From the sequence record NZ_CP092111.1: a stretch of 64,000 bases of DNA, one strand, 5' to 3'. Of this stretch, positions 4,421 to 48,898 are shown in pieces; the first letter of the stretch is position 1, and each line of letters begins with the position of its first letter. Under the pieces are notes generated by a model that did no database searches, was not told the origin of the DNA, and saw only the letters and a program-made list of their open reading frames with translations. Made by a program: the position numbers and the translations under genes. The stretch comes from a plasmid.

Positions 4421-4424
4421 ATTG

Positions 4425-4553
4425 AAATATTAGTTTCTAATTGTTATAATGTAATCAAGGAAGGGAGGTAAGAACAAAAACGGTTAGCTTGGTAAATCAA
4501 ACTACCGGCATACGCGTAGCGATCAAAATTTCACACAAAAGGAGACATGTCGA
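4425..4553 (+). promoter_or_regulatory. Second copy of the conserved promoter-leader module (TTGAAA-17-TATAAT)
   Basis: See 1690..1833. Confidence 0.5.
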
Positions 4554-5003
4554 ATGGAACCTATTTTCGAAATTATCAGCCTCAAACAAGAAAAAAAAGA
4601 ATCAGATTTGATAGGAGCTTTTGAACAGGTTGTAGATGCTGAAGCCCTTGCGAACGTGGTTAAATACTACATCCAGAATGAAGATCGTGAGGTTTTCTTA
4701 GTTATCATTTATAACAACAAGTTGAGAATAACAGCAATTCATCGATGCAGCATTGGGGCGCTAAATGCGGCGATTGTTACTCCGAGAGAAGTGTTTAAAG
4801 CAGCGATATTGAACAATGCGGCAGCGATTGCAGTAGCTCACAACCACCCCAGTTCTGATCCTACAGCAAGCAAGGAGGATATCGAAGTAACAAAGCGGCT
4901 TCACCAAGCCGGGGACATCCTCGGCATTGAATTGCTGGATCATATCATTGTAGCTGCACACACTGACCGATACGTAAGCCTTAGAGAAAAAGGGATAATA
5001 TAA
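4554..5003 (+). CDS. RadC-like JAB/MPN domain protein
   Basis: HNHPSSDPTASKEDIEVTKRL...GIELLDHIIV: JAMM-like HxHxxxxxxxS/D motif typical of RadC/UPF0758. Confidence 0.8.
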   Translation: MEPIFEIISLKQEKKESDLIGAFEQVVDAEALANVVKYYIQNEDREVFLVIIYNNKLRITAIHRCSIGALNAAIVTPREVFKAAILNNAAAIAVAHNHPSSDPTASKEDIEVTKRLHQAGDILGIELLDHIIVAAHTDRYVSLREKGII

Positions 5004-5645: not shown

Positions 5646-6425
5646 GTGAATGATTTGAAAGGCATCTTTTTATTATCCGTTTCTTTATTTGAAGGGCAGC
5701 TTCAGGAGGCCCAAAATGTAGCACAATCATCCGGAGGTCTGGGCGCAGATCTTAGCCACTTCATCATGTTTGAATACAAGTTACCTAGTTCATTGGAGCC
5801 GATCCTTTCAAAATCGGATAATGATGTGTTATCAGCTGAACAACTTAGAATCAGTATAGAAGCGAGGGATCACCTTGACTCTATAATTGATAAACTCAAA
5901 AAGGAATATCCAAGATCGAGGGAAAGCTATGGTTTGAATCGCTCTTCTCTTATGAGGGATATTCTCAAGCAATTTATTTTAAAGCGACAAGATCTCGAAA
6001 AGAGGGAGGTTCACCATTCGTCTTTTTCGTTCGAAGCAGATAAGATTTCGTTTTTGCAAAGTGTTCTCCCATTCAAGGAGAGAGATCGGACTATTGAGCA
6101 CTTTATTCTTAATTCTTATGCCCCCTCTGAAACAGAACCTCCAGAGTCTCACAAGCCAAAGAACATGAGCCAGATAAGAATAAAAATGGATGTGAGAGCA
6201 TTTGAAAAGCTGGATAATATTGTTGACCAGTTTAAAGGAAAAGGTCTGACGAGAGCAGATGTAATGCGTCATGTTGTTGATCAACTTATAAAAGAATTAT
6301 CTACTACGGACAATGTTAAAGCCTTTACGGAGGAAAAATTAGATGAGGCTGTCCGGAACTTCAGAGAGGTACACGGGGCAGATAGACTAAAGGAAAAATT
6401 AACTGAATATGACAGACGGCAATAA
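5646..6425 (+). CDS. hypothetical protein with two ribbon-helix-helix-like segments (possible tandem-RHH DNA-binding protein)
   Basis: Segments RISIEARDHLDSIIDKL...SRSSLMRDIL and IRIKMDVRAFEKLDNIVDQF...TRADVMRHVVDQL have the beta-strand/helix/helix pattern of RHH (Arc/CopG) folds. This is inference from pattern only. Confidence 0.35.
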   Translation: MNDLKGIFLLSVSLFEGQLQEAQNVAQSSGGLGADLSHFIMFEYKLPSSLEPILSKSDNDVLSAEQLRISIEARDHLDSIIDKLKKEYPRSRESYGLNRSSLMRDILKQFILKRQDLEKREVHHSSFSFEADKISFLQSVLPFKERDRTIEHFILNSYAPSETEPPESHKPKNMSQIRIKMDVRAFEKLDNIVDQFKGKGLTRADVMRHVVDQLIKELSTTDNVKAFTEEKLDEAVRNFREVHGADRLKEKLTEYDRRQ

Positions 6426-37812: not shown

Positions 37813-38058
37813 TCACTCAGGTTTCTTGTAATAAAACTTGGAGCTATCAGAGATTAAGGTGTTACTTACTCTACGGATTGTTTCCGAATTTCTTTGAAAT
37901 TTATTAAAAGGGGTATTGTCGATTTTATACTTTTTTCTCAATTCTTTAATCTTACCGGCGATTATAAAAAGGTCATCTTCCTTCAAATTTGCAATATCAC
38001 ATAATATTTCGAGATATAGTTTTTCGGTCATTTTTAATTTCACCATCCTGCTCGTCAT
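37813..38058 (-). CDS. hypothetical protein (81 aa)
   Basis: ORF. Confidence 0.3.
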   Translation of the reverse strand: MTSRMVKLKMTEKLYLEILCDIANLKEDDLFIIAGKIKELRKKYKIDNTPFNKFQRNSETIRRVSNTLISDSSKFYYKKPE

Positions 38059-38846
38059 TTTGTTTTATCAACAAAATCAAAAATGCTTTGATCAAGAGGC
38101 TTTTCCCCTTGCCCTTGAAACAGCCAATTTTTTGTTTCGCGGTTATATTCCCAACCAGCTTTTTTTAAAGCCGCGCTTAATTGCTCTAAGTTAATGCTTG
38201 GTATCTTTTTAGCAATGCTTGCTAATGTTATACCTGGTTGTCTGGTTGCGGAGAGAACTTCACGTAAGGTTGGGTTTTCACCTATATTGATTGAATTTAG
38301 TTCACTCAACTCTTTATGCCATTTCTTTATATCCGATCTGTCGAACCCTTCCTGGGTTAGAGTAGAAGGGATTTCATTAGGGGTATCCAAATAATATTGC
38401 AACTGTTTTAACGCTTCGGGTAGGGGACCGAAACTGTGTATTGTTTTGTGTCTTTGCCCTTTCCCTGGGACTGTCACGCCTTTTTTAATGTACACATAAA
38501 TTTTCCCTTGTTTTTTTAATTTGACTAAGAAGCCGCTCTTTTTAAAGTCTGTCGGAGTGGCGTTACTCTTCGAAGCATATCTATGATTTACTTTGTTTCT
38601 GTCAATTTTGTCTTTCTGTAAATAAGCTTCTAAATCAGACTTTAGGTAACGATCAGCAATAGCTTGGATTTCTCCCTTATGCACTCTGTTATAAAATGTC
38701 ACATGAGAAATGTTCATGTATGCCGCAGCCGCTTTGGGATCAAGGAGTTGCTCGGAGAGGTAATTTCTTATTTTCTGTTCTTTTTCCTTATCAGAAATGG
38801 GTTCATTTGCGATTTTTATTATCTCGTACATAGTAAACCTCCACAT
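38055..38846 (-). CDS. HTH DNA-binding protein (excisionase/MerR-like N-terminal HTH) with C-terminal domain of unknown function
   Basis: AAAYMNISHVTFYNRVHKGEIQA. Confidence 0.5.
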   Translation of the reverse strand: MWRFTMYEIIKIANEPISDKEKEQKIRNYLSEQLLDPKAAAAYMNISHVTFYNRVHKGEIQAIADRYLKSDLEAYLQKDKIDRNKVNHRYASKSNATPTDFKKSGFLVKLKKQGKIYVYIKKGVTVPGKGQRHKTIHSFGPLPEALKQLQYYLDTPNEIPSTLTQEGFDRSDIKKWHKELSELNSINIGENPTLREVLSATRQPGITLASIAKKIPSINLEQLSAALKKAGWEYNRETKNWLFQGQGEKPLDQSIFDFVDKTK

Positions 38847-38949
38847 TGTTTGGGTATTGTTTCTCTAATTTTCCGTCCTAAACCCTAATAATATCCTCTT
38901 ATTCTGAATGTTGAAAGTTCCAAAGGGAGGATGCGGGCAAGACATAAGA

Positions 38950-39000
38950 GAGAACTTTCCCTTGTGTTAAGTATAACATATGCTATAGTAATTGTATAGC
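38950..39000. promoter_or_regulatory. Variant copy (E6) of the palindromic operator: aacatatgctata-N-tatagcatatgtt, with compensatory change in both arms
   Basis: Seen in sequence. Confidence 0.5.
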
Positions 39001-39015
39001 ATATGTTATACAAAA

Positions 39016-39702
39016 TTAGTGAAGGTTCGACATTGCTTTTGAAATTTCCTTATCAGTTGCACGTATAACGGATTCAACAAACTTTTCACAATGTCTTTCG
39101 TCCGAAAAAGAACGGCTATCGAAGTTTATATTTAACGTATATGAAAACTGTTTTTGATTTACCTTGTAAATCAGAGTTGTTACACATTCATAATTACAAA
39201 TATCTTCGGTCTTATCATATTCCAGCTCCATATCATCGTACTGAGATTTAATACATTCGTCCGCAGTGTGAATCTGCCGCTCCTTTATATACTCACAAGC
39301 AATAGCTTCTATGACATGATGTATAGTCCGTTTGACAGCTGAAAGATAAAGGTCACAGTGAACGGATGGGTTTTTAACGGTTGTTATAAAAGTTGGGTGA
39401 GCATGCGTTTGAGCCGCTATTTCTGAGTGGATGATATCCTTGAATTCAGTTTCTGCTATACCTGCAACTTCATCCAATGTCAGGAAATCAAGCGTTTGAG
39501 AATGGTCACTATTGTTTAAAAACATATTCTTATTTTTTCTCACCTCGATGCTGAGTGAAGCTAACGCATAATAGCGCATCTGCTGCTGAACACGATCACC
39601 TAGACATGCCATAATTTTTTCTTTGTTTTCTTGAGTGGCAGGCAAACCATTGCTTTCTAATACTGCCGAAAGGTCTTCTGCTTTAAGTTTTGTTAATAAC
39701 AT
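39016..39702 (-). CDS. hypothetical protein; weak paralog of 40509..41174
   Basis: Shared N-terminal motif LP/IPATxENxxxI. Confidence 0.45.
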   Translation of the reverse strand: MLLTKLKAEDLSAVLESNGLPATQENKEKIMACLGDRVQQQMRYYALASLSIEVRKNKNMFLNNSDHSQTLDFLTLDEVAGIAETEFKDIIHSEIAAQTHAHPTFITTVKNPSVHCDLYLSAVKRTIHHVIEAIACEYIKERQIHTADECIKSQYDDMELEYDKTEDICNYECVTTLIYKVNQKQFSYTLNINFDSRSFSDERHCEKFVESVIRATDKEISKAMSNLH

Positions 39703-39776
39703 AAGAACAGCTCCTTATTTTCGATTATGGAGAGCATTCACGCGGGGAATGAACCACGCGTGAATGCAACTAAGCA

Positions 39777-39977
39777 TTAATCATTAATAATGGTGCCGCA
39801 AAATATATGAATTCGATTATTGGTGTGCTGGATCATTCTGACTTGGACATCCTCTTGTTTAGAGATCGAAAGGTTTTTAGCTTTCTTAAAGACGCTTGCA
39901 ATGCTAATTGGGCTTTCGATTGTTTCCTCCAATTGATCTTTTACAAACAAATTTGCTTCGAAAACTCTTGTTTTCAT
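39777..39977 (-). CDS. small hypothetical protein (66 aa)
   Basis: Immediately downstream of element copy E1. Confidence 0.35.
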   Translation of the reverse strand: MKTRVFEANLFVKDQLEETIESPISIASVFKKAKNLSISKQEDVQVRMIQHTNNRIHIFCGTIIND

Positions 39978-40082
39978 CTGAACCGCTCCTTTTCAAATTT
40001 ATTGTGTGAATGTCACCATCATCTGATGACAATTCAAGTATAACATATGCTTTACTGATATTAAAGCATATGTTAGAAATGT
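39978..40082 (-). promoter_or_regulatory. Conserved promoter/operator/5'UTR element, copy E1
   Basis: On the minus strand: palindrome taacatatgcttta-N7-taaagcatatgtta overlapping an extended -10 (TGtTATACT). Then the CATCA-N2-TGATG palindrome. Then conserved UTR attcacacaataaatttgaaaaggag. Confidence 0.6.
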
Positions 40083-40424
40083 TTATTTATCTTTTTGATA
40101 TAACGTGTAACCGCATTTGCAAAACTCAGCTATTTGTACAGGTGACAACCCGATTGTTTCGCCCTGATCGTTGACTGATGCGACAAAAAATGGGCCGTGG
40201 ATACAATGTGTCTTACCGTTTTCAGTAATTTTGCAATAGTATTGGGAATTGTAGAAGCCCTCTTCGTCGAACCAAATGTCAATGTTATTATTGAGTCTCA
40301 AACATTCGAGGTTATCGGCTCCTACAAGATTTTGCCGTTCTTCAAGGGTTTGCGGCAGTTCAACAAATCTGTTGTTCTGATGATCAAACAAAATGATTTT
40401 TTCCATAAAACTACTTCCTTTCAA
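40083..40424 (-). CDS. hypothetical protein (113 aa)
   Basis: ORF downstream of E2. Confidence 0.4.
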   Translation of the reverse strand: MKGSSFMEKIILFDHQNNRFVELPQTLEERQNLVGADNLECLRLNNNIDIWFDEEGFYNSQYYCKITENGKTHCIHGPFFVASVNDQGETIGLSPVQIAEFCKCGYTLYQKDK

Positions 40425-40508
40425 ATTTTATTGTGTGAATGTCACCATCACCTGATGATAATTTAAGTATAACATATTCTTTACCGATAGTAAAGCATAT
40501 GTTATAAA
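40425..40508 (-). promoter_or_regulatory. element copy E2
   Basis: Same architecture as E1. Confidence 0.6.
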
Positions 40509-41174
40509 TTATTTTTTGAAATTTCCATCCGGCACTCTCAGCTGACAGATAACATGGTTTACGAATTCTTGGAAAGTACCTTCGCTACTTAGATCATGAC
40601 CTTTTATGTTAGTCATAACGGCGTACCATTTTCCGCTCTTAGGGAAATAAACATTGTTAATCATATTAAAAGGATCGTCATTCTTTTCAAAGTTTTTTCC
40701 TAACATTTGAGAAGGTTTTACAAAGGATACATTACATTCTTCGTCCACATACTTATTGATCGAGTTAAAGTATCTTTTTGCAATGACTTTAATCAGGTAA
40801 CAAATAGTTTCTGCCGTTTCAAAAAAAGGGGGTTCCGTTATGGAATCGAATTGCATCTCAGAAAGAAATTCTATAGTTGCAGTGAAAGAAAAACTGCCTT
40901 TAGTTCTCTCTTCCGCTATTTCAGTGAACTCATTAAGAGTAATCAACTTCGCTCTCTTCCGATACACATCATCAGAAGTAAAAACTATTTTGTTATCCTC
41001 GATGTGATTCAGCAAAGTTTCAAAGGCATCGTGCCGAATCGTTTCTTGAATTTCTGCTGTGTCCAACTCTTGAAAGATCAATCTTATGTTTTCCTTAGTT
41101 GCCGGTATGTTGTTTCTTCGAAGAGCTTCAATAAAATCCGCTTGTGCCAGTGTGACCTGAAACGTAAAATTCAT
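40509..41174 (-). CDS. hypothetical protein (221 aa)
   Basis: ORF downstream of E3. Confidence 0.45.
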   Translation of the reverse strand: MNFTFQVTLAQADFIEALRRNNIPATKENIRLIFQELDTAEIQETIRHDAFETLLNHIEDNKIVFTSDDVYRKRAKLITLNEFTEIAEERTKGSFSFTATIEFLSEMQFDSITEPPFFETAETICYLIKVIAKRYFNSINKYVDEECNVSFVKPSQMLGKNFEKNDDPFNMINNVYFPKSGKWYAVMTNIKGHDLSSEGTFQEFVNHVICQLRVPDGNFKK

Positions 41175-41285
41175 TTTAATTCTCCTTTACAAAATTTATT
41201 GTGTGAATGCCGCCATCACCTGATGACAATTTAAGTATAACATATGCTTTATATAAGGTAAAGCATATGTTATACATTTTTTTGT
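41175..41285 (-). promoter_or_regulatory. element copy E3
   Basis: Same architecture as E1. Confidence 0.6.
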
Positions 41286-41321
41286 TTTGATAAAATCATT
41301 CCTTTTCTTTATAATGAAATT

Positions 41322-41406
41322 AATGATTTGTAAGGACTTTACCTCCTTAACAAATTTATTGTGTGAATAGGTTGCGGTGTGCGGAAACATGCCGCAACTC
41401 TTTTCT
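41322..41406 (+). ncRNA. candidate small RNA (about 85 nt). Promoter is TTGATA(41287)-17-TATAAT(41310); terminator is gttgcgg...ccgcaac + tcttttct. The body is antisense to the conserved 5'UTR/SD of the element-driven genes
   Basis: Promoter, terminator and complementarity all seen directly. Transcript segment ccuccuuaacaaauuuauugugugaau is complementary to mRNA leaders auucacacaauaaauuug(a/u)aaaggag of genes 39777-39977, 40083-40424, 40509-41174 (minus strand) and 41843-42307 (plus strand). Confidence 0.4.
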
Positions 41407-41412
41407 ATTATA

Positions 41413-41498
41413 TGCTTTACTATAATTAAAGAATATGTTAGAATTTAATTACCGTCAGTTGATGGTTTTCACACAATAAATCTTTTGGAGGGGTTAAA
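41413..41498 (+). promoter_or_regulatory. element copy E4 (degenerate palindrome tatatgctttac-N-ttaaagaatatgtta) driving gene 41499
   Basis: Seen in sequence. Confidence 0.45.
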
Positions 41499-41744
41499 TT
41501 GTTACCACATATCAGGAAAATGAGTCTTGTTCATGATTATCTTTATAATAATCGTGAAGTAGCTGAAAGATCGAATGATGGGAAGGATCAAGTGAGAGAC
41601 CGTTTTATCATTGTTACTACAGCAGAGGATCTCTTTGCTGAAGAAATACCCGCTGAAGAACATTATCTATATTCAGATTTTAATGAAGTGGTAAGTGAAC
41701 TGCGAAACACGGTAAATGATATGAAAGCTTTAAGGGAATTTTAG
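41499..41744 (+). CDS. hypothetical protein (81 aa, TTG start)
   Basis: SD ggagggg. Confidence 0.4.
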   Translation: MLPHIRKMSLVHDYLYNNREVAERSNDGKDQVRDRFIIVTTAEDLFAEEIPAEEHYLYSDFNEVVSELRNTVNDMKALREF

Positions 41745-41749
41745 AATAT

Positions 41750-41842
41750 TTTTTCTAACATATGCTTTACTATCAGTAAAGCATATGTTATACTTAAATT
41801 GTCATCAGGTGATGGTGGCATTCACACAATAAATTTGAAGGG
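41750..41842 (+). promoter_or_regulatory. element copy E5 (plus orientation) driving the second RadC-like gene
   Basis: taacatatgctttactatcagtaaagcatatgttatact...gtcatcaggtgatggtggcattcacacaataaatttgaaggg. Confidence 0.6.
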
Positions 41843-42307
41843 ATGAAGAAAATGGAGAAAGTGATTGAAGTTCTTACTCTGAAACAGGTAAAACATGAGG
41901 TTGACTGTCCAGTATCAGTCATAAGAAAGCCAGACGACGCTTTTAAGGTCTATGAATACTTTATAGCAGATGAAGCAAGAGAGGTGCCATTGGCTATCTA
42001 TCTTGACGTTAAAAACAACATTCTTGCCATATATAAAGTATCGATAGGGGATGTTCGCAGTGCTATCCTCTCTCCAAGACAAATTTATCAGGCGGCACTT
42101 TTAAATAATGCTTCGTCAGTAATCATTGGACATAATCATCCAGGCGGTGATGTTGCTCCTTCAAGGCAAGATATTGAAACCACTCAGAGGATATATGAAG
42201 CAGGAAAGCTACTAGGGATAGAACTTTTAGATCACATTATAGTGAGCATTGAAAATGGAGAAAAGAAACATCTTTCTTTGAAAGAGGCAGGATACATTAG
42301 GAATTAA
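41843..42307 (+). CDS. RadC-like JAB/MPN domain protein, second copy
   Basis: GHNHPGGDVAPSRQDIETTQRIYEAGKLLGIELLDHIIV. Confidence 0.8.
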   Translation: MKKMEKVIEVLTLKQVKHEVDCPVSVIRKPDDAFKVYEYFIADEAREVPLAIYLDVKNNILAIYKVSIGDVRSAILSPRQIYQAALLNNASSVIIGHNHPGGDVAPSRQDIETTQRIYEAGKLLGIELLDHIIVSIENGEKKHLSLKEAGYIRN

Positions 42308-42404
42308 AAGAAAAAAATTTAACCAATAGGTTCACAAAGTAAACCAAATTGTTTACTTTGTGAACTGAATGGTGTAAAATTAAGGTAAAGAAGGAGGTAG
42401 TAAT

Positions 42405-42872
42405 ATGAAAAAATCTCAACAATTTCTGAAAGGAACTTTTCCTTACTTGGGTCATCCTGATTATGATGGGAAGCCAACTAATGATACGCTCGAAACCTTT
42501 GATCAGTTGTTTTCTCATTTCCAAGACCATCACAAGAACGGCTTTGACCTCAGACGGCTGGGCAACCTGGAGCCATCGCTTATGTTACTTGCAGTGGAAG
42601 CCATTGCGATTTTCTACAAAGAGGATCTGTACAGAGAAAAGGAACCTGATACGGAATATATCAACCTTACAGATACCGCTAAGTTGCTTGGCATTTCAAA
42701 ACAAACTTTACGTAAGCGAATGGAAAAACAAAGTCCGCCAGTACCAAAACCAGATCACTATGTGAGCGGTGTACCGGCGTGGGAAAAGAAAGCTGTAGAA
42801 CAGTTCATATGGGACAACGGCCTTTATGATAATGATGGAGAATTCACTTATCCTATTCGAGAAGAAGACTAA
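42405..42872 (+). CDS. HTH DNA-binding protein (MerR/excisionase-like)
   Basis: LTDTAKLLGISKQTLRKRMEK. Confidence 0.5.
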   Translation: MKKSQQFLKGTFPYLGHPDYDGKPTNDTLETFDQLFSHFQDHHKNGFDLRRLGNLEPSLMLLAVEAIAIFYKEDLYREKEPDTEYINLTDTAKLLGISKQTLRKRMEKQSPPVPKPDHYVSGVPAWEKKAVEQFIWDNGLYDNDGEFTYPIREED

Positions 42873-42890
42873 AAAAGGAGAGAAATAATT

Positions 42891-43139
42891 ATGAAAAAAA
42901 ACCTTGCCACATTATTGGAAGAGCGGAAGCGATCACAGTCTCAGTTGGATAAAAACGAAGTGATACTAATTAAGGATGCGATAGAAGAGTTTTCTCACAG
43001 AGAAGAGTTTGAACCAGCTTTCTATTTACAGCGATTTTTGAGCTACCATGAACTATCCTCACGGTGGGGGTGGCTGCTTGTTGAGAAATTTCTTGTATAT
43101 GTGAGAAGGGAAGAAAAAAAGCTGTCTGCTTTCCGTTAA
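42891..43139 (+). CDS. hypothetical protein (82 aa)
   Basis: ORF. Confidence 0.35.
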   Translation: MKKNLATLLEERKRSQSQLDKNEVILIKDAIEEFSHREEFEPAFYLQRFLSYHELSSRWGWLLVEKFLVYVRREEKKLSAFR

Positions 43140-43143
43140 TTTA

Positions 43144-43548
43144 ATGATGCCGACACAATTGAAGGAGGATTTGACAATGAAAATGTTCGGCTATGTAAGA
43201 GGTCTGTATGATTTAGAAAGAATGGCGGAATTGTATGGGTGGCAGATCAATTCAAAGGATCATTGTAATAAGGGGTCAGACTTTGTTTATCTTTTTCATG
43301 AGGAACGGGATTTTTTGGTAGCGGTAAATACGATTAATGGTCGGTTCTTTGTTACACATCGATTAACGAAAAACCTTGTGGCTACGGATCAAAGTGTCAA
43401 ATTAAAAAGTGAAAAATGGTATGAGGATTTGCTTGAAATCCTTTATAAAGAGATTCCATGCCGTTTCTTAAATAAAAAAGAGTTCAGCCGCCAGCTGAAC
43501 CCTCTTGAAACCTTAAAAGCTTCTCACGCTAAAGAAGATTTCATGTAA
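43144..43548 (+). CDS. hypothetical protein; paralog of 44007..44309
   Basis: Shared motif GW...DxVYLF...D.xVAxNTxNGxFFV. Confidence 0.45.
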   Translation: MMPTQLKEDLTMKMFGYVRGLYDLERMAELYGWQINSKDHCNKGSDFVYLFHEERDFLVAVNTINGRFFVTHRLTKNLVATDQSVKLKSEKWYEDLLEILYKEIPCRFLNKKEFSRQLNPLETLKASHAKEDFM

Positions 43549-43590
43549 TTATAGCACAGATCCGTTTATTCCTGTATGGGAGGTGCACGA

Positions 43591-43752
43591 ATGACAGCCG
43601 CTGAAGTCGCGGTGATATTAGGAATTTTCCTGACATCTCTGCACATCTGTGAAAAGCTTCTCACGCTAGAAAAGATGTTAATAGAAAGAAAGTCACCAAA
43701 GAAAAAAAGTCCTCGGAAAGCAAGCCGCAACAGTAAGCGTAAGTTTGGATAG
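43591..43752 (+). CDS. small membrane peptide (53 aa) with basic tail
   Basis: SD gggaggtg 6 nt upstream; hydrophobic N-terminus then KSPKKKSPRKASRNSKRK. Not in the >=60-aa ORF track. Confidence 0.3.
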   Translation: MTAAEVAVILGIFLTSLHICEKLLTLEKMLIERKSPKKKSPRKASRNSKRKFG

Positions 43753-43781
43753 AGGGAGAGGGTTCGCCTCTCCCCGCCTAT

Positions 43782-43973
43782 ATGGGTTGTCAAAATGATA
43801 TGAAATTACTCAAAACTATAAAAGAGATTGTTTTCTGGCTATTCATCTTCACTTATGTCTTTGGTGTCCGCACAGCGGTTAGCGGCGGTATTCAAGAAGC
43901 TTTAGACATATTGATCATTATTTCTGTTGTTTGTTCGTTAATTGTATTTTGGATAAAAAGTAGACAAGCCTAA
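43782..43973 (+). CDS. small 2-TM membrane peptide (63 aa)
   Basis: Hydrophobic; followed by terminator. Confidence 0.35.
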   Translation: MGCQNDMKLLKTIKEIVFWLFIFTYVFGVRTAVSGGIQEALDILIIISVVCSLIVFWIKSRQA

Positions 43974-43990
43974 GCAGGCTTGTCTTGAAT
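43962..43990 (+). terminator. rho-independent terminator (agacaagcc taagc aggcttgtct)
   Basis: Perfect 9-bp stem. Confidence 0.55.
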
Positions 43991-44006
43991 TAAAGGAGCA
44001 GATAAT

Positions 44007-44309
44007 GTGAAAAAATTTGCCGGTGTAAGATCATTGGACGATATGAGAACACAAGCGATTGAAGCAGGGTGGAAATTTGATGAGAAGGCTTACCATAAGG
44101 AGAACAGTGACTATGTATTCCTTTATGGTAAAACAAAAGATGACATTATGGTTGCTATCAATACATTCAATGGCCATTTCTTTGTTTATAATAATGCAAC
44201 TGATGAAAGTATAGCTACGCATTTAAGTGAGCGATTTGATCAAGAATCTTGGTACGTTGAAATTCTGAATATTGTTAATAAGCCATATGTGAAAAAAGAG
44301 CGGCTTTAA
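44007..44309 (+). CDS. hypothetical protein; paralog of 43144..43548
   Basis: See 43144..43548. Confidence 0.45.
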   Translation: MKKFAGVRSLDDMRTQAIEAGWKFDEKAYHKENSDYVFLYGKTKDDIMVAINTFNGHFFVYNNATDESIATHLSERFDQESWYVEILNIVNKPYVKKERL

Positions 44310-44424
44310 TCACTCAGCACATACAGCAGGCGCAGCAGGTCTGCGCTCTCTTCACAAATGATACAACATTGAACATTTTTCGTTTTGAACCGGTTTAAAT
44401 TTTATCGGTGAGAGGTGTTTTGAA

Positions 44425-44700
44425 TTGCAGTATCCAGGAGATTACGTAACGATTGTAAAAAAGCCTTCTAATAGGTATGACCAAGGTCTTTTCGAGATCC
44501 GTGGTATACCCAATACCTTCTTTGAATTTTCATATCTTGGAGACAGAGGTTTTATAGAGATTAAAGAAAGCGGTACAGCGATATACTGTGTCAACCGGAA
44601 TGTTAAAGAGGGGAAACCTGTTTCATATAACTTTAGCAAGAAAAATATTGCATATCTCAGAGAGCAGATAAGATATCTGCTGGACAGACGACTATACTAA
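44425..44700 (+). CDS. hypothetical protein (91 aa)
   Basis: ORF. Confidence 0.35.
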   Translation: MQYPGDYVTIVKKPSNRYDQGLFEIRGIPNTFFEFSYLGDRGFIEIKESGTAIYCVNRNVKEGKPVSYNFSKKNIAYLREQIRYLLDRRLY

Positions 44701-44729
44701 AATATGTGGTTTATAATTGATGAATAGGA

Positions 44730-45254
44730 GTGTTAAATGTGTATGGCGGTAGCCTAAACGATATAGAAGCGAATTTAGAGCGGCTTTTAGAAGCTGAAGA
44801 GAAATCATTGTCTTGGAGCATTTCGTTTATGTGTGAGGAAGGAATAGAATTAGAATCAGTAGGAAGTGTGTATTATAGCGGGAACAGCTTTTATAATGCC
44901 GAGGATGCTTATCAATATTTAAAAGAAAAAAACCTTCTTTCAGAGTTTTCGCTTAGCCAGCAAGAAAAAATCATAGATCAGGTTAAAGCATTTGTGAATT
45001 TGCAGATTTTTGAAAACCCAAATTACTGCAGCCATTCAGGGTACAAAGCTTCTCCTGAATGTTATCGGGAAACGGAAAATAAAATAATGGTAGCTTTTAT
45101 AGATGATTCAGACCAACTCTATTTTGATGCTATTATAGACAAAATCTGTGGCAATGTGAGGTTTGAGTATCTGGGGCAATACGAGACAGAGGGAAGCCGC
45201 CCTTTTGAAAACAGATCGTTTAAGATAAGTGTAGAAAGTATTAGGGGGAAATAA
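44730..45254 (+). CDS. hypothetical protein (174 aa)
   Basis: ORF. Confidence 0.4.
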   Translation: MLNVYGGSLNDIEANLERLLEAEEKSLSWSISFMCEEGIELESVGSVYYSGNSFYNAEDAYQYLKEKNLLSEFSLSQQEKIIDQVKAFVNLQIFENPNYCSHSGYKASPECYRETENKIMVAFIDDSDQLYFDAIIDKICGNVRFEYLGQYETEGSRPFENRSFKISVESIRGK

Positions 45255-47440: not shown

Positions 47441-47675
47441 GCAAGTTTCTAAAAGCAAAGGTAACTGGTGTCGTTAGCAAGCATGCTTTCATCGTCTGGG
47501 GTTATGAATAGAAGTTGAGAGGATACTGCACAGTGATAAAAAGTATCAAATACCATTTAATTAATTTGAAATCATTTCTCAGGGGTTTACAGGGTAATTG
47601 GAGTGTTGAGCCTGGTATTGCGGTGAAGTTCGGAGGAACATCCTGGGGAGCTGTATTAAGTACCATTTGAGTTTT

Positions 47676-47705
47676 TGATAAAAAAGCGAATTTATGTTAT
47701 AATAA
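47676..47705 (+). promoter_or_regulatory. orphan strong promoter TTGATA-17-TGtTATAAT with no ORF downstream for about 350 bp
   Basis: Seen in sequence. Confidence 0.35.
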
Positions 47706-48051
47706 CAGAACAATTAGTTAAACGAAAAAACAGAGAGACGTTCAAGTAACTTGGCTGCAGCTTTTACCCTACATTAAACGGTCAGGTTTAATGTTAGCCA
47801 GTTCTTGAAAGACCCTCTATTCCTATCTTGCTATTTTTATAATTCTTTAAGGAAGCAGAAAATTAATAAGAAGAGTCTGCCTAGAACGACAAACCATTCT
47901 AAGGTCTTCTTGATTTTCTCGCTTCTTTTTTTTATGTATGAAAAGAATTTTTTCACTGGCCTCCCCCCTTTACTGCTTGATCAGCTGCGGGATTTAGAGC
48001 AGTTTTAATTAGCCTCTCTACCGTCTGCTTTATTTCTCATAAATAAACGAG

Positions 48052-48337: not shown

Positions 48338-48450
48338 ATTTCATAATGTATGCTTTTACATAAAAGCATACATTATAATTGTTGAAAACACTGATTTTTT
48401 TTCGTTAGTGTGTTATAATCTATATAATAGAAAAAAGCATACATTTTTTT
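48338..48450 (+). promoter_or_regulatory. operator/promoter: palindrome aatgtatgctttta-cat-aaaagcatacatt, extended -10 tgtgttataat, third half-site aaaaaagcatacattttttt
   Basis: Seen in sequence; half-site related to that of the six-copy element. Confidence 0.45.
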
Positions 48451-48601: not shown

Positions 48602-48898
48602 ATGCTAAAGTGTAAAAATGCTCGAATTCATGAATTTAGGCTTCAAGCCGTTCATACAACGCCAGTCCTGTATGTCATAGAAGATTTCATGCAAGAATTT
48701 ACTCTTATTGCTATCCCACAGTGGGATTGGTCCTTTCAGATGACGCATACAGTTCCACGTGATCTGAATATAAAACAGTTACAGCAGTCATTATCAGTTG
48801 CCGGCTTTATAAATTACGATGAATCTGGTTTCGCTGCAAATACAATAGCTGATATCGTATTTAATGAAATACCGGTAAAAGCCGAATATATTGAATAG
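48602..48898 (+). CDS. hypothetical protein (98 aa)
   Basis: ORF with SD ggga. Confidence 0.4.
   Translation: MLKCKNARIHEFRLQAVHTTPVLYVIEDFMQEFTLIAIPQWDWSFQMTHTVPRDLNIKQLQQSLSVAGFINYDESGFAANTIADIVFNEIPVKAEYIE

Follow-up and report, generated by a model that had tools for sequence, protein, structure and literature searches.

This report concerns an intergenic region of a Bacillus plasmid (record NZ_CP092111.1), of which one stretch of 64,000 nucleotides, here called the window, was analysed. To judge by its sequence the window is that of a conjugative Bacillus velezensis/amyloliquefaciens plasmid of about 67 kb; positions 40400-42400 are 99.9% identical to the 67-kb B. velezensis plasmid NZ_CP116015.1 (strain SRCM124633), and with a B. 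amyloliquefaciens plasmid of 65 kb they share 98.4% identity. Five genes around the locus share a unit of about 100 bp, hereafter the cassette, one copy of which precedes each gene and supplies an operator, a promoter and a messenger leader. Where two divergent sets of such genes meet, the plus strand from 41322 to about 41406 is very likely to hold a real small non-coding RNA (sRNA) gene of about 85 nt, the body of which is complementary to the leaders. A reading made earlier from the letters of this DNA (the original prediction) had proposed such an RNA, antisense to the ribosome-binding region shared by the cassette-driven genes. The features of the candidate are as follows.

41287-41315, plus strand: sigma-A-type promoter; -35 TTGATA at 41287-41292, 17-bp spacer, -10 TATAAT at 41310-41315
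41325-41356, plus strand: 5' hairpin of the sRNA as folded, GAUUUGUAAGGA / loop CUUUACC / UCCUUAACAAAUU
41357-41369, plus strand: single-stranded G/U-rich seed UAUUGUGUGAAUA, complementary to the leader core AUUCACACAAUA
41370-41406, plus strand: intrinsic terminator; 12-bp stem at 41370-41399 (6 G-C), 6-nt loop CGGAAA, U-tract CUUUUCU at 41400-41406

A candidate small RNA gene

The promoter, which the original prediction had called perfect, is present with one mismatch (11/12 to the sigma-A consensus) and is the best match in 38000-45000. Sites that match at 11 or more of the 12 positions number just four in the window on both strands (128 kb), the sRNA promoter among them. It is the candidate's own promoter, near-consensus and apparently free of an operator, and it would place the start of the RNA near A41322. 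The terminator hairpin lies about 55 nt downstream. This hairpin with a U-rich tract, which had also been foreseen, is indeed there, as a 12-bp stem followed by CTTTTCT; it folds at -18.0 kcal/mol (z = -4.4 against shuffles), its U-tract is interrupted (CUCUUUUCU) and not of textbook form, and it stands in a divergent intergenic region in which no gene needs terminating. We infer both transcription and the exact 5' and 3' ends of the sRNA from these signals.

A search confirmed that the interval from promoter to terminator has no open reading frame (ORF) equipped with a ribosome-binding site. A leaderless frame of 15 codons that begins with ATG at 41323 is not conserved in the relatives, and no ORF is conserved on either strand, the short frames varying in start, frame or length or being absent across lineages. 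A small protein was ruled out on the ground that the frames of both strands are unconserved.

The seed UAUUGUGUGAAUA is unpaired both in the minimum free energy fold and in ensemble folds. The original prediction had stressed an anti-Shine-Dalgarno (anti-SD) motif, CCUCC, and this is present at 41342-41346, within the 5' hairpin, partly in its loop and partly in its 3' arm. Between lineages the motif differs in place and sequence, however (CUCCUUU, CUCCGG and UUCCCC elsewhere), and it is partly buried; the invariant and accessible part of the RNA is instead the GU-rich UGUGUGAA, directed against the leader core, which is kept and unpaired in all seven homologues.

Conservation across five lineages

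Comparison was made across five lineages, namely the window with L001 and L002, L003 with L031 (B. subtilis), L029 (B. subtilis), L027 (B. atrophaeus) and L033-L035 (B. pumilus group). The contigs L029, L031 and L027 were reached by a profile search with the putative repressor of the cassettes, an HTH_17 protein, and the B. pumilus-group plasmids by tblastn with this repressor on plasmids; the B. pumilus-group repressor is 27% identical. The three near-identical plasmids show no change within 41287-41406, which at 98-99% identity is uninformative. On the B. subtilis plasmid NZ_CP114900.1 (L003) the spacer is about 74% identical and the arrangement is a mirror image, with TTGAAA-17-TATAAT, the anti-leader segment, a hairpin and TTTTTT in that order.

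By a simple motif search each plasmid has exactly one copy of the candidate, and the locus always lies at the meeting point of two divergent cassette-driven gene sets. The order of parts is constant: sRNA promoter, 5' hairpin, G/U-rich stretch, terminator, operator-promoter, leader and small gene. Four lineages have the promoter as TTGATA or TTGAAA-17-TATAAT, the hexamers and the 17-bp spacing being kept in L003, L031, L029 and L027, while L033/L035 have TTGTAA-17-TGtTATATT. The predicted homologue RNAs are 58-93 nt long and all seven fold as a 5' hairpin, an unpaired UGUGUGAA and a terminator hairpin with a U-tail, even though the 5' hairpin is built from different sequence in each lineage. 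U-tracts in the other lineages are uninterrupted (U5-U6), and in every homologue the sRNA strand is more stable than its complement.

The terminator stem shows covariation, with 100% of cells paired and 5/12 pairs changed on both sides, a level that was reached by 0/500 shuffles and in no slid register. There are eight G.U cells and all of them fall on the sRNA strand, the opposite strand having A.C mismatches at these places; this confinement argues for selection on that strand as RNA. The gene downstream of the unit is homologous in four lineages and unrelated in the pumilus group, so that the sRNA unit is not tied to one gene. The comparison of five lineages gives strong backing to the proposal that the plus strand yields a separate non-coding RNA of about 85 nt, transcribed on its own and antisense to the leader. 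It was also observed that the terminator loop CGGAAA(A) (41382-41387) and its closing pairs are invariant in the seven homologues, on a stem with five compensated pairs; as read from this alignment, the conservation of the loop is greater than termination alone needs.

Searches from the neighbouring genes led away from the locus. A protein search with the 81-aa protein encoded downstream (41499-41744) returned near-identical plasmids only, and tblastn with the same protein found homologues on Bacillus plasmids of 136-156 kb, where the sRNA motif was absent from both loci examined (L004 and L005) and the L004 homologue has an ordinary promoter with no cassette. With the RadC protein, identity fell from 99% to 51% and both contexts examined were unrelated. 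A separate observation from a Metabacillus conjugative contig (L009:1-380) is that a long repeat- and hairpin-rich region stands upstream of its RadC gene; this resembles the EGeRS1 regions of other Bacillus plasmids, described below, and not the cassette studied here. The leader DNA pattern was matched 0 times among viral contigs and reference genomes and 3 times, by chance, among metagenomes, the operator DNA pattern gave 14 isolated palindromes in unrelated taxa that were judged chance, and blastn with the L027 and L033 loci gave no additional plasmids.

The repeated cassette and its putative repressor

The operator of the cassette is a palindrome with 17-bp arms, containing TAAAGCATATGTTATAC in inverted repeat, that overlaps a promoter of the form TTTACT-17-(TG)TATACT. 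Half-sites of this sequence occur 13 times against 0.22 expected. Directly after the predicted transcription start, the leader forms a short perfect hairpin, GTCATCAGGTGATGAC, which is followed by the core ATTCACACAATAAAT, the Shine-Dalgarno sequence (SD) and the start codon; the 15-mer leader core has 6 copies against 0.35 expected. Its C/A-rich part, AUUCACACAAUAAAU, directly follows the 5' hairpin of the mRNA and lies 28-37 nt upstream of the start codon. The cassette's most conserved part is a perfect inverted repeat after the predicted mRNA start, TTGTCATCAGGTGATGAC (for example at 41797-41816), which is kept in the L027/L033 leaders despite their changed operator and core; it could be a stabiliser of the mRNA 5' end or a second DNA operator.

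A sixth palindrome (38971-39011) precedes the HTH_17 gene at 38055-38831 on the minus strand. The leader of this gene is long and lacks the C/A core, both in the window and in L003 (5062-5619, minus strand, with its palindrome at 5714-5742). An operator combined with a core-less leader suggests an auto-regulated repressor and not an sRNA target, and operator sequence changes together with the HTH_17 protein across lineages. The operator palindromes of L027 and L033 differ (TATCACACACTTTACA... and TATACCTTTATGTTGACG...), as do their altered leader cores (CTTCACACAACATTT and CACACACATT), while the mRNA 5' hairpin is kept. On this sequence evidence the HTH_17 protein is probably an auto-regulated, palindrome-binding repressor.

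The sRNA gene lies between two of the operators, opposite a further leader copy.

41235-41275: perfect operator palindrome with 17-bp arms and promoter of the gene at 40509-41174 (minus strand); ends 12 bp upstream of the sRNA -35
41340-41399, minus strand: orphan leader copy; hairpin, AUUCACACAAUAAAUUUGUUAAGGAGG, no start codon or conserved ORF
41403-41443: degenerate operator palindrome TTCTATTATATGCTTTA ... TAAAGAATATGTTAGAA with the gene 41499 promoter TTTACT-17-TAGAAT

In L003 the first palindrome and the sRNA -35 are spaced differently, by 4 bp. The outer edge of the degenerate palindrome overlaps the sRNA U-tract. The orphan leader is a sixth leader copy, on the minus strand, and differs from the others solely in its 5' hairpin, which is unlike that of the other copies and forms the terminator on the sRNA strand. 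Its SD, AAGGAGG, is the strongest of the leader SDs and has no start codon behind it; short frames after it differ or are absent in L003, L029 and L027. The original prediction had taken the sRNA locus for a cassette copy whose operator and untranslated part had been replaced by the terminator. This did not hold, since the locus is instead an orphan leader in inverted orientation, which has a degenerate operator palindrome still in common with gene 41499. The orphan leader may be transcribed from that palindrome (41403-41443). Its sense promoter is poor in the window (TTTAAT-17-TAGAAA, no TG), whereas those of L027 (TTTACA-17-TATAAA) and L033 (TTCAAA-16-TATAAA) are reasonable and look usable; in all lineages the -10 of this promoter is the complement of the sRNA U-tract. 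A single-strand promoter of the Frpo kind was set aside on stem length alone, a palindrome of 17 bp being too short to rebuild a -35/-10 pair.

Complementarity to the leaders

The reverse complement of 41341-41369 is TATTCACACAATAAATTTGTTAAGGAGGT, and its match to the leaders gives five predicted targets in the window.

41468-41498, plus strand: leader of the 81-aa gene 41499-41744, predicted target; 14 nt contiguous, plus SD
41820-41851, plus strand: leader of the RadC-like JAB gene (start 41843 or 41852, end 42307), predicted target; 18 nt contiguous
41175-41208, minus strand: leader of the 221-aa gene 40509-41174, predicted target; 17 nt contiguous, 1-nt bulge, SD
40407-40440, minus strand: leader of the DUF3846 gene 40083-40406, predicted target; 14 nt contiguous
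39978-40011, minus strand: leader of the 66-aa gene 39777-39977, predicted target; 18 nt contiguous

The match counts given in the original prediction (18/18 for RadC, one leader with a 1-nt indel, two adjacent substitutions) all hold. Beyond the contiguous runs, interrupted matches reach into the SD of the leaders. The leader matches begin 27-37 nt before the start codon and, the sRNA's own locus aside, all exact complementarities of more than 13 nt to the sRNA body fall in cassette leaders, in every plasmid. The other lineages have four to six targets per plasmid. The contiguous match is 14-18 nt in the window, 15-18 in the B. subtilis plasmids, 9-16 in B. atrophaeus and 10-13 in the pumilus group. 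From lineage to lineage the seed changes with the core (AAUAAAU, AAUACAU, (A/U)ACAUUU and CACACAUU), and cognate duplexes are mostly stronger than cross-lineage duplexes.

Pairing of the sRNA with the target leaders, which the original prediction had put forward, was computed by co-folding, with the cost of unfolding both partners charged and with sRNAs of shuffled body as control. The predicted heterodimer gain was -13 to -25 kcal/mol, stronger than that of the shuffled bodies (about -4 to -7 kcal/mol), and the intermolecular pairs span from directly after the mRNA 5' hairpin to the SD. Outside the cassette family, the gene at 4554-5003 is preceded (4422-4553, plus strand) by a sigma-A promoter at 4422 that ranks among the window's four best, and by a leader, TTTCACACAAAAGGAGACATG, with a 9-nt match to the sRNA seed that abuts the SD; this gene could be an extra target or the match could be chance.

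Proposed mechanism and alternative explanations

Taken together these data make it reasonably probable, in our view, that the RNA is a trans-acting sRNA that pairs with the C/A-rich core and the SD and represses the cassette mRNAs. The features by which this class is recognised in silico are all found at the locus, namely an own promoter, an intrinsic terminator, the lack of coding potential and an accessible seed that matches near several ribosome-binding sites (RBSs). The RNA would be made constitutively from its own sigma-A promoter and ended by the intrinsic terminator. Its seed UAUUGUGUGAAUA would pair with the core AUUCACACAAUAAAU in each cassette mRNA, and pairing would then extend into the SD while the 5' hairpin of the sRNA opens. 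Ribosome loading would be hindered, or the duplex cut, probably by RNase III, or both; such a cut would strip off the protective 5' hairpin and lead to decay of the mRNA. The palindrome-binding repressor, probably the HTH_17 protein, and the sRNA would together hold the regulon silent in the established plasmid, and the sRNA would sharpen the pulse of expression that follows transfer. We infer repression, and the parts played by RNase and ribosome, from sequence.

Several points weigh against a trans-acting role. For one L033 target the minimum among shuffled bodies reaches the observed energy, and in L027 3/5 leaders have just 9 contiguous nt plus a mismatch. Because the sRNA is encoded opposite a leader copy, its complementarity to the leaders is automatic, and the co-variation of seed and core could therefore reflect concerted evolution of repeats and not selection for pairing. 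The anti-SD would, in the modelled fold, be partly shut in the 5' hairpin. The interrupted U-tract CUCUUUUCU possibly permits read-through into gene 41499, and the start and end points of the RNA are predicted ones. Finally, the five lineages all belong to the B. subtilis/B. pumilus groups, and none more was found in reference-genome, metagenome and viral collections.

The RNA could alternatively be a purely cis-acting antisense that acts, through transcriptional interference or breakdown of the duplex, on nothing but the minus-strand transcript to which it is fully complementary. The latter would run from the palindrome at 41403-41443 through the orphan leader into the cassette and gene 40509-41174, and complementarity to other leaders would be incidental. 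In every lineage the orphan leader does lie upstream of, and co-oriented with, a complete cassette, the sense promoters of L027 and L033 look usable, and the perfect duplex, at -80 kcal/mol, is well beyond the trans duplexes (about -30 kcal/mol). The sense promoter of the window is poor, however; the orphan of L033 keeps only its hairpin and core, the parts for a trans seed, and has lost the SD part; and the seed is unpaired in all homologues, which a cis-only antisense RNA would not need. We regard this explanation as unlikely, while still giving it some weight. The same orphan leader may be seen as a decoy, in which case an operator-controlled leader RNA would sponge the constitutive sRNA just after entry, when repressor is absent, and so allow a spell of translation that ends once the repressor turns the decoy off. 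Its position behind an operator palindrome, its lack of an ORF and its perfect complementarity to the sRNA would suit such a pair, as would the sense -10 that complements the sRNA U-tract in all lineages, but in the B. subtilis lineages as in the window the orphan's sense promoter is weak, and convergent overlapping transcription makes joint accumulation of the two RNAs uncertain, so that we consider a decoy pair quite improbable. An extended form of this idea, speculative and to be given little weight, is a three-part establishment timer consisting of the HTH repressor, the constitutive anti-leader sRNA and a repressor-controlled, ORF-less decoy leader from the opposite strand. The decoy would sponge the sRNA only in the repressor-free minutes after entry so that anti-defence and establishment proteins are made in a sharp pulse that limits itself; a single inverted leader copy would provide the sRNA gene on one strand and the sponge on the other, the -10 of the sponge doubling as the U-tract of the sRNA.

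That the strong promoter might instead serve gene 41499, with the hairpin as a regulated attenuator in its leader, had been raised as an alternative in the original prediction. A small cassette-driven gene always follows the unit in the same orientation, the U-tract of the window is imperfect, and a read-through RNA would hold both anti-leader and leader and could sequester its own SD. The alternative is nevertheless weakened by the operator-promoter that gene 41499 has of its own, between the terminator and its leader, and by the unrelated downstream gene of the pumilus group (L033). In addition the 81-aa gene has a homologue without a cassette on the larger plasmid L004, the sRNA motif is absent from L004 and L005, the other lineages have clean U6 tracts, and folding found no alternative antiterminator structure. 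An attenuator therefore seems very improbable. Least credible of all, to our mind, is that the locus is a non-functional relic of an inverted cassette duplication with a chance promoter and hairpin. It is clearly derived from a leader copy, and promoter-like sites are common in AT-rich DNA (at 9/12 or better, 23 were counted and 22.6 expected), but 11/12 matches are rare (the four in 128 kb), the stem substitutions are compensated, and the hexamers, their spacing, both hairpins and the U-tract outlast a change of operator and a drop of the repressor to 27% identity.

Comparison with known systems

No family of Rfam 15 (4227 models, including GcvB, FinP, Plasmid_RNAIII and RsaE) was found at gathering thresholds in the whole window. 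A permissive Rfam scan of 41150-41520 gave nothing above 21 bits, every E being 0.16 or more, well short of gathering; a known RNA family was ruled out, these hits being noise.

GcvB is one chromosomal, Hfq-dependent sRNA with many targets, the sites of which were acquired independently. In enterobacteria (work of Sharma et al. in Genes Dev, 2007) it reportedly uses a single-stranded G/U-rich seed against C/A-rich elements in or upstream of the SD to block translation. The candidate is alike in its G/U seed, in the C/A-rich sites near the SD and in its many predicted targets, as read here from sequence. It differs from GcvB in that the two show no homology of sequence or structure; all of its predicted targets have one repeated leader cassette in common, and its gene is itself an inverted copy of that leader, carried by a Gram-positive plasmid.

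FinP is a constitutive plasmid antisense RNA that acts on the 5' untranslated region (UTR) and RBS of traJ and so keeps transfer functions off; it is cis-encoded, acts on a single gene and needs FinO. The present RNA is likewise encoded on a plasmid and predicted to pair with a 5' UTR including the RBS. An arrangement of the FinP/traJ type, opposite the 5' UTR/RBS of a single controlled gene, was not found, however: no gene lies on the opposite strand of the sRNA, the nearest co-oriented gene has a complete cassette, and the predicted targets are five to seven dispersed mRNAs. The c4 RNA of phages P1/P7 and the CI RNA of satellite P4 are complementary to repeated sites in their own early transcripts (for c4 including the RBS) and stand beside protein repressors. 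These RNAs are processed from the transcript that they control and act on one operon. As in those elements, a small RNA here is complementary to repeated sites in the element's own transcripts, whereas it has its own promoter and terminator, several separate operons are predicted to be controlled, and there is no sequence relationship.

The biological setting is that of the EGeRS control of establishment genes in the pLS20 plasmid family, in which a conserved regulatory cassette is also repeated before small operons beside the conjugation genes of Bacillus plasmids. Reg576/EGeRS2 (p576, pLS20 clade II) is described as a dual heptamer operator, TTATCCCnnTTATCCC, next to the -35 and bound by a ribbon-helix-helix (RHH) repressor (PMC6294495). 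The heptamer TTATCCCnnTTATCCC had 0 matches with two or fewer mismatches in the window; the operators here are, unlike those of EGeRS2, palindromes with 17-bp arms that overlap the promoter, with a probable HTH_17 repressor. EGeRS1, of pLS20 clades I, III and IV, is a GC-rich multi-hairpin region of 420-750 bp without a promoter, upstream of each operon (PMC8708921). The cassette differs in being about 100 bp long and AT-rich and in containing a promoter. In the family the plasmid repressor auto-regulates and shuts off the establishment set after transfer (PMC6294495, PMC8708921). A term search found no mention of an antisense or small RNA regulator in PMC8708921, and literature searches brought up no description of the present RNA. 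On pCF10, Anti-Q and Qs-X are small RNAs from divergent/convergent promoters that control conjugation, with RNase III-dependent processing of the duplex (PMC3181467). Those RNAs act at one locus (prgQ/prgX) by overlapping convergent transcripts and attenuation, and not on a dispersed regulon with a shared leader.

Plasmid setting and other features

Proteins of conjugation type in the window are a VirB4-like AAA_10 ATPase and a thioester-domain adhesin, together with, by the annotation of a near-identical record, a lytic transglycosylase/C40 peptidase. The small-gene cluster, with RadC/JAB, DUF3846, two HTH proteins and NucA/NucB, adjoins the conjugation genes. In the pLS20 plasmid family such small-gene clusters are called establishment genes (PMC6294495, PMC8708921), and the cassette-driven genes of the window, RadC and DUF3846 among them, have the look of 'establishment' genes that are expressed once transfer has taken place. 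On the B. amyloliquefaciens plasmid L002 (4357-5326) two additional genes and one additional cassette lie between the 81-aa gene and RadC, which points to gain and loss of such cassette-gene modules among near-identical plasmids.

On the minus strand a strong hairpin, GCATTCACGCG...CGCGTGAATGC at 39730-39775, lies between the 66-aa gene (39777-39977) and a 228-aa gene (39016-39702) that lacks its own cassette; the hairpin could terminate transcription within an operon or mark a site of processing there. A second TTGATA-17-TATAAT (11/12) opens the region 47675-47935 (plus strand) and is followed by about 230 nt without an obvious ORF and by a hairpin and T-run near 47870-47935, which may be a further non-coding RNA, for instance a replication-control RNA. 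Upstream of genes that start near 48603 there is a different palindrome, AATGTATGCTTTTAC/ATAAAAGCATACATT at 48343-48382, with an extra half-site at about 48434. Its form recalls the establishment operator, its sequence does not, and it may serve as operator for a different regulator of the plasmid.

Significance

How conjugative elements switch establishment and anti-defence genes quickly on and off is, to our knowledge, poorly understood, and for Gram-positive plasmids we know of two described schemes only, the Reg576 operators and the structured EGeRS1 regions, the mechanism of which is unknown. The locus described here points to a third scheme, in which a repeated promoter-operator-leader cassette is combined with a single sRNA that matches the leader. 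If this is true, it would add a post-transcriptional layer able to reach the whole regulon at once. It also suggests an evolutionary route to a regulon-wide sRNA, by which one copy of the shared leader is inverted and a promoter is placed behind it. Were the proposal borne out, the sRNA might offer a handle against plasmid establishment, and the locus a compact module of one RNA and many targets for synthetic biology in Bacillus.

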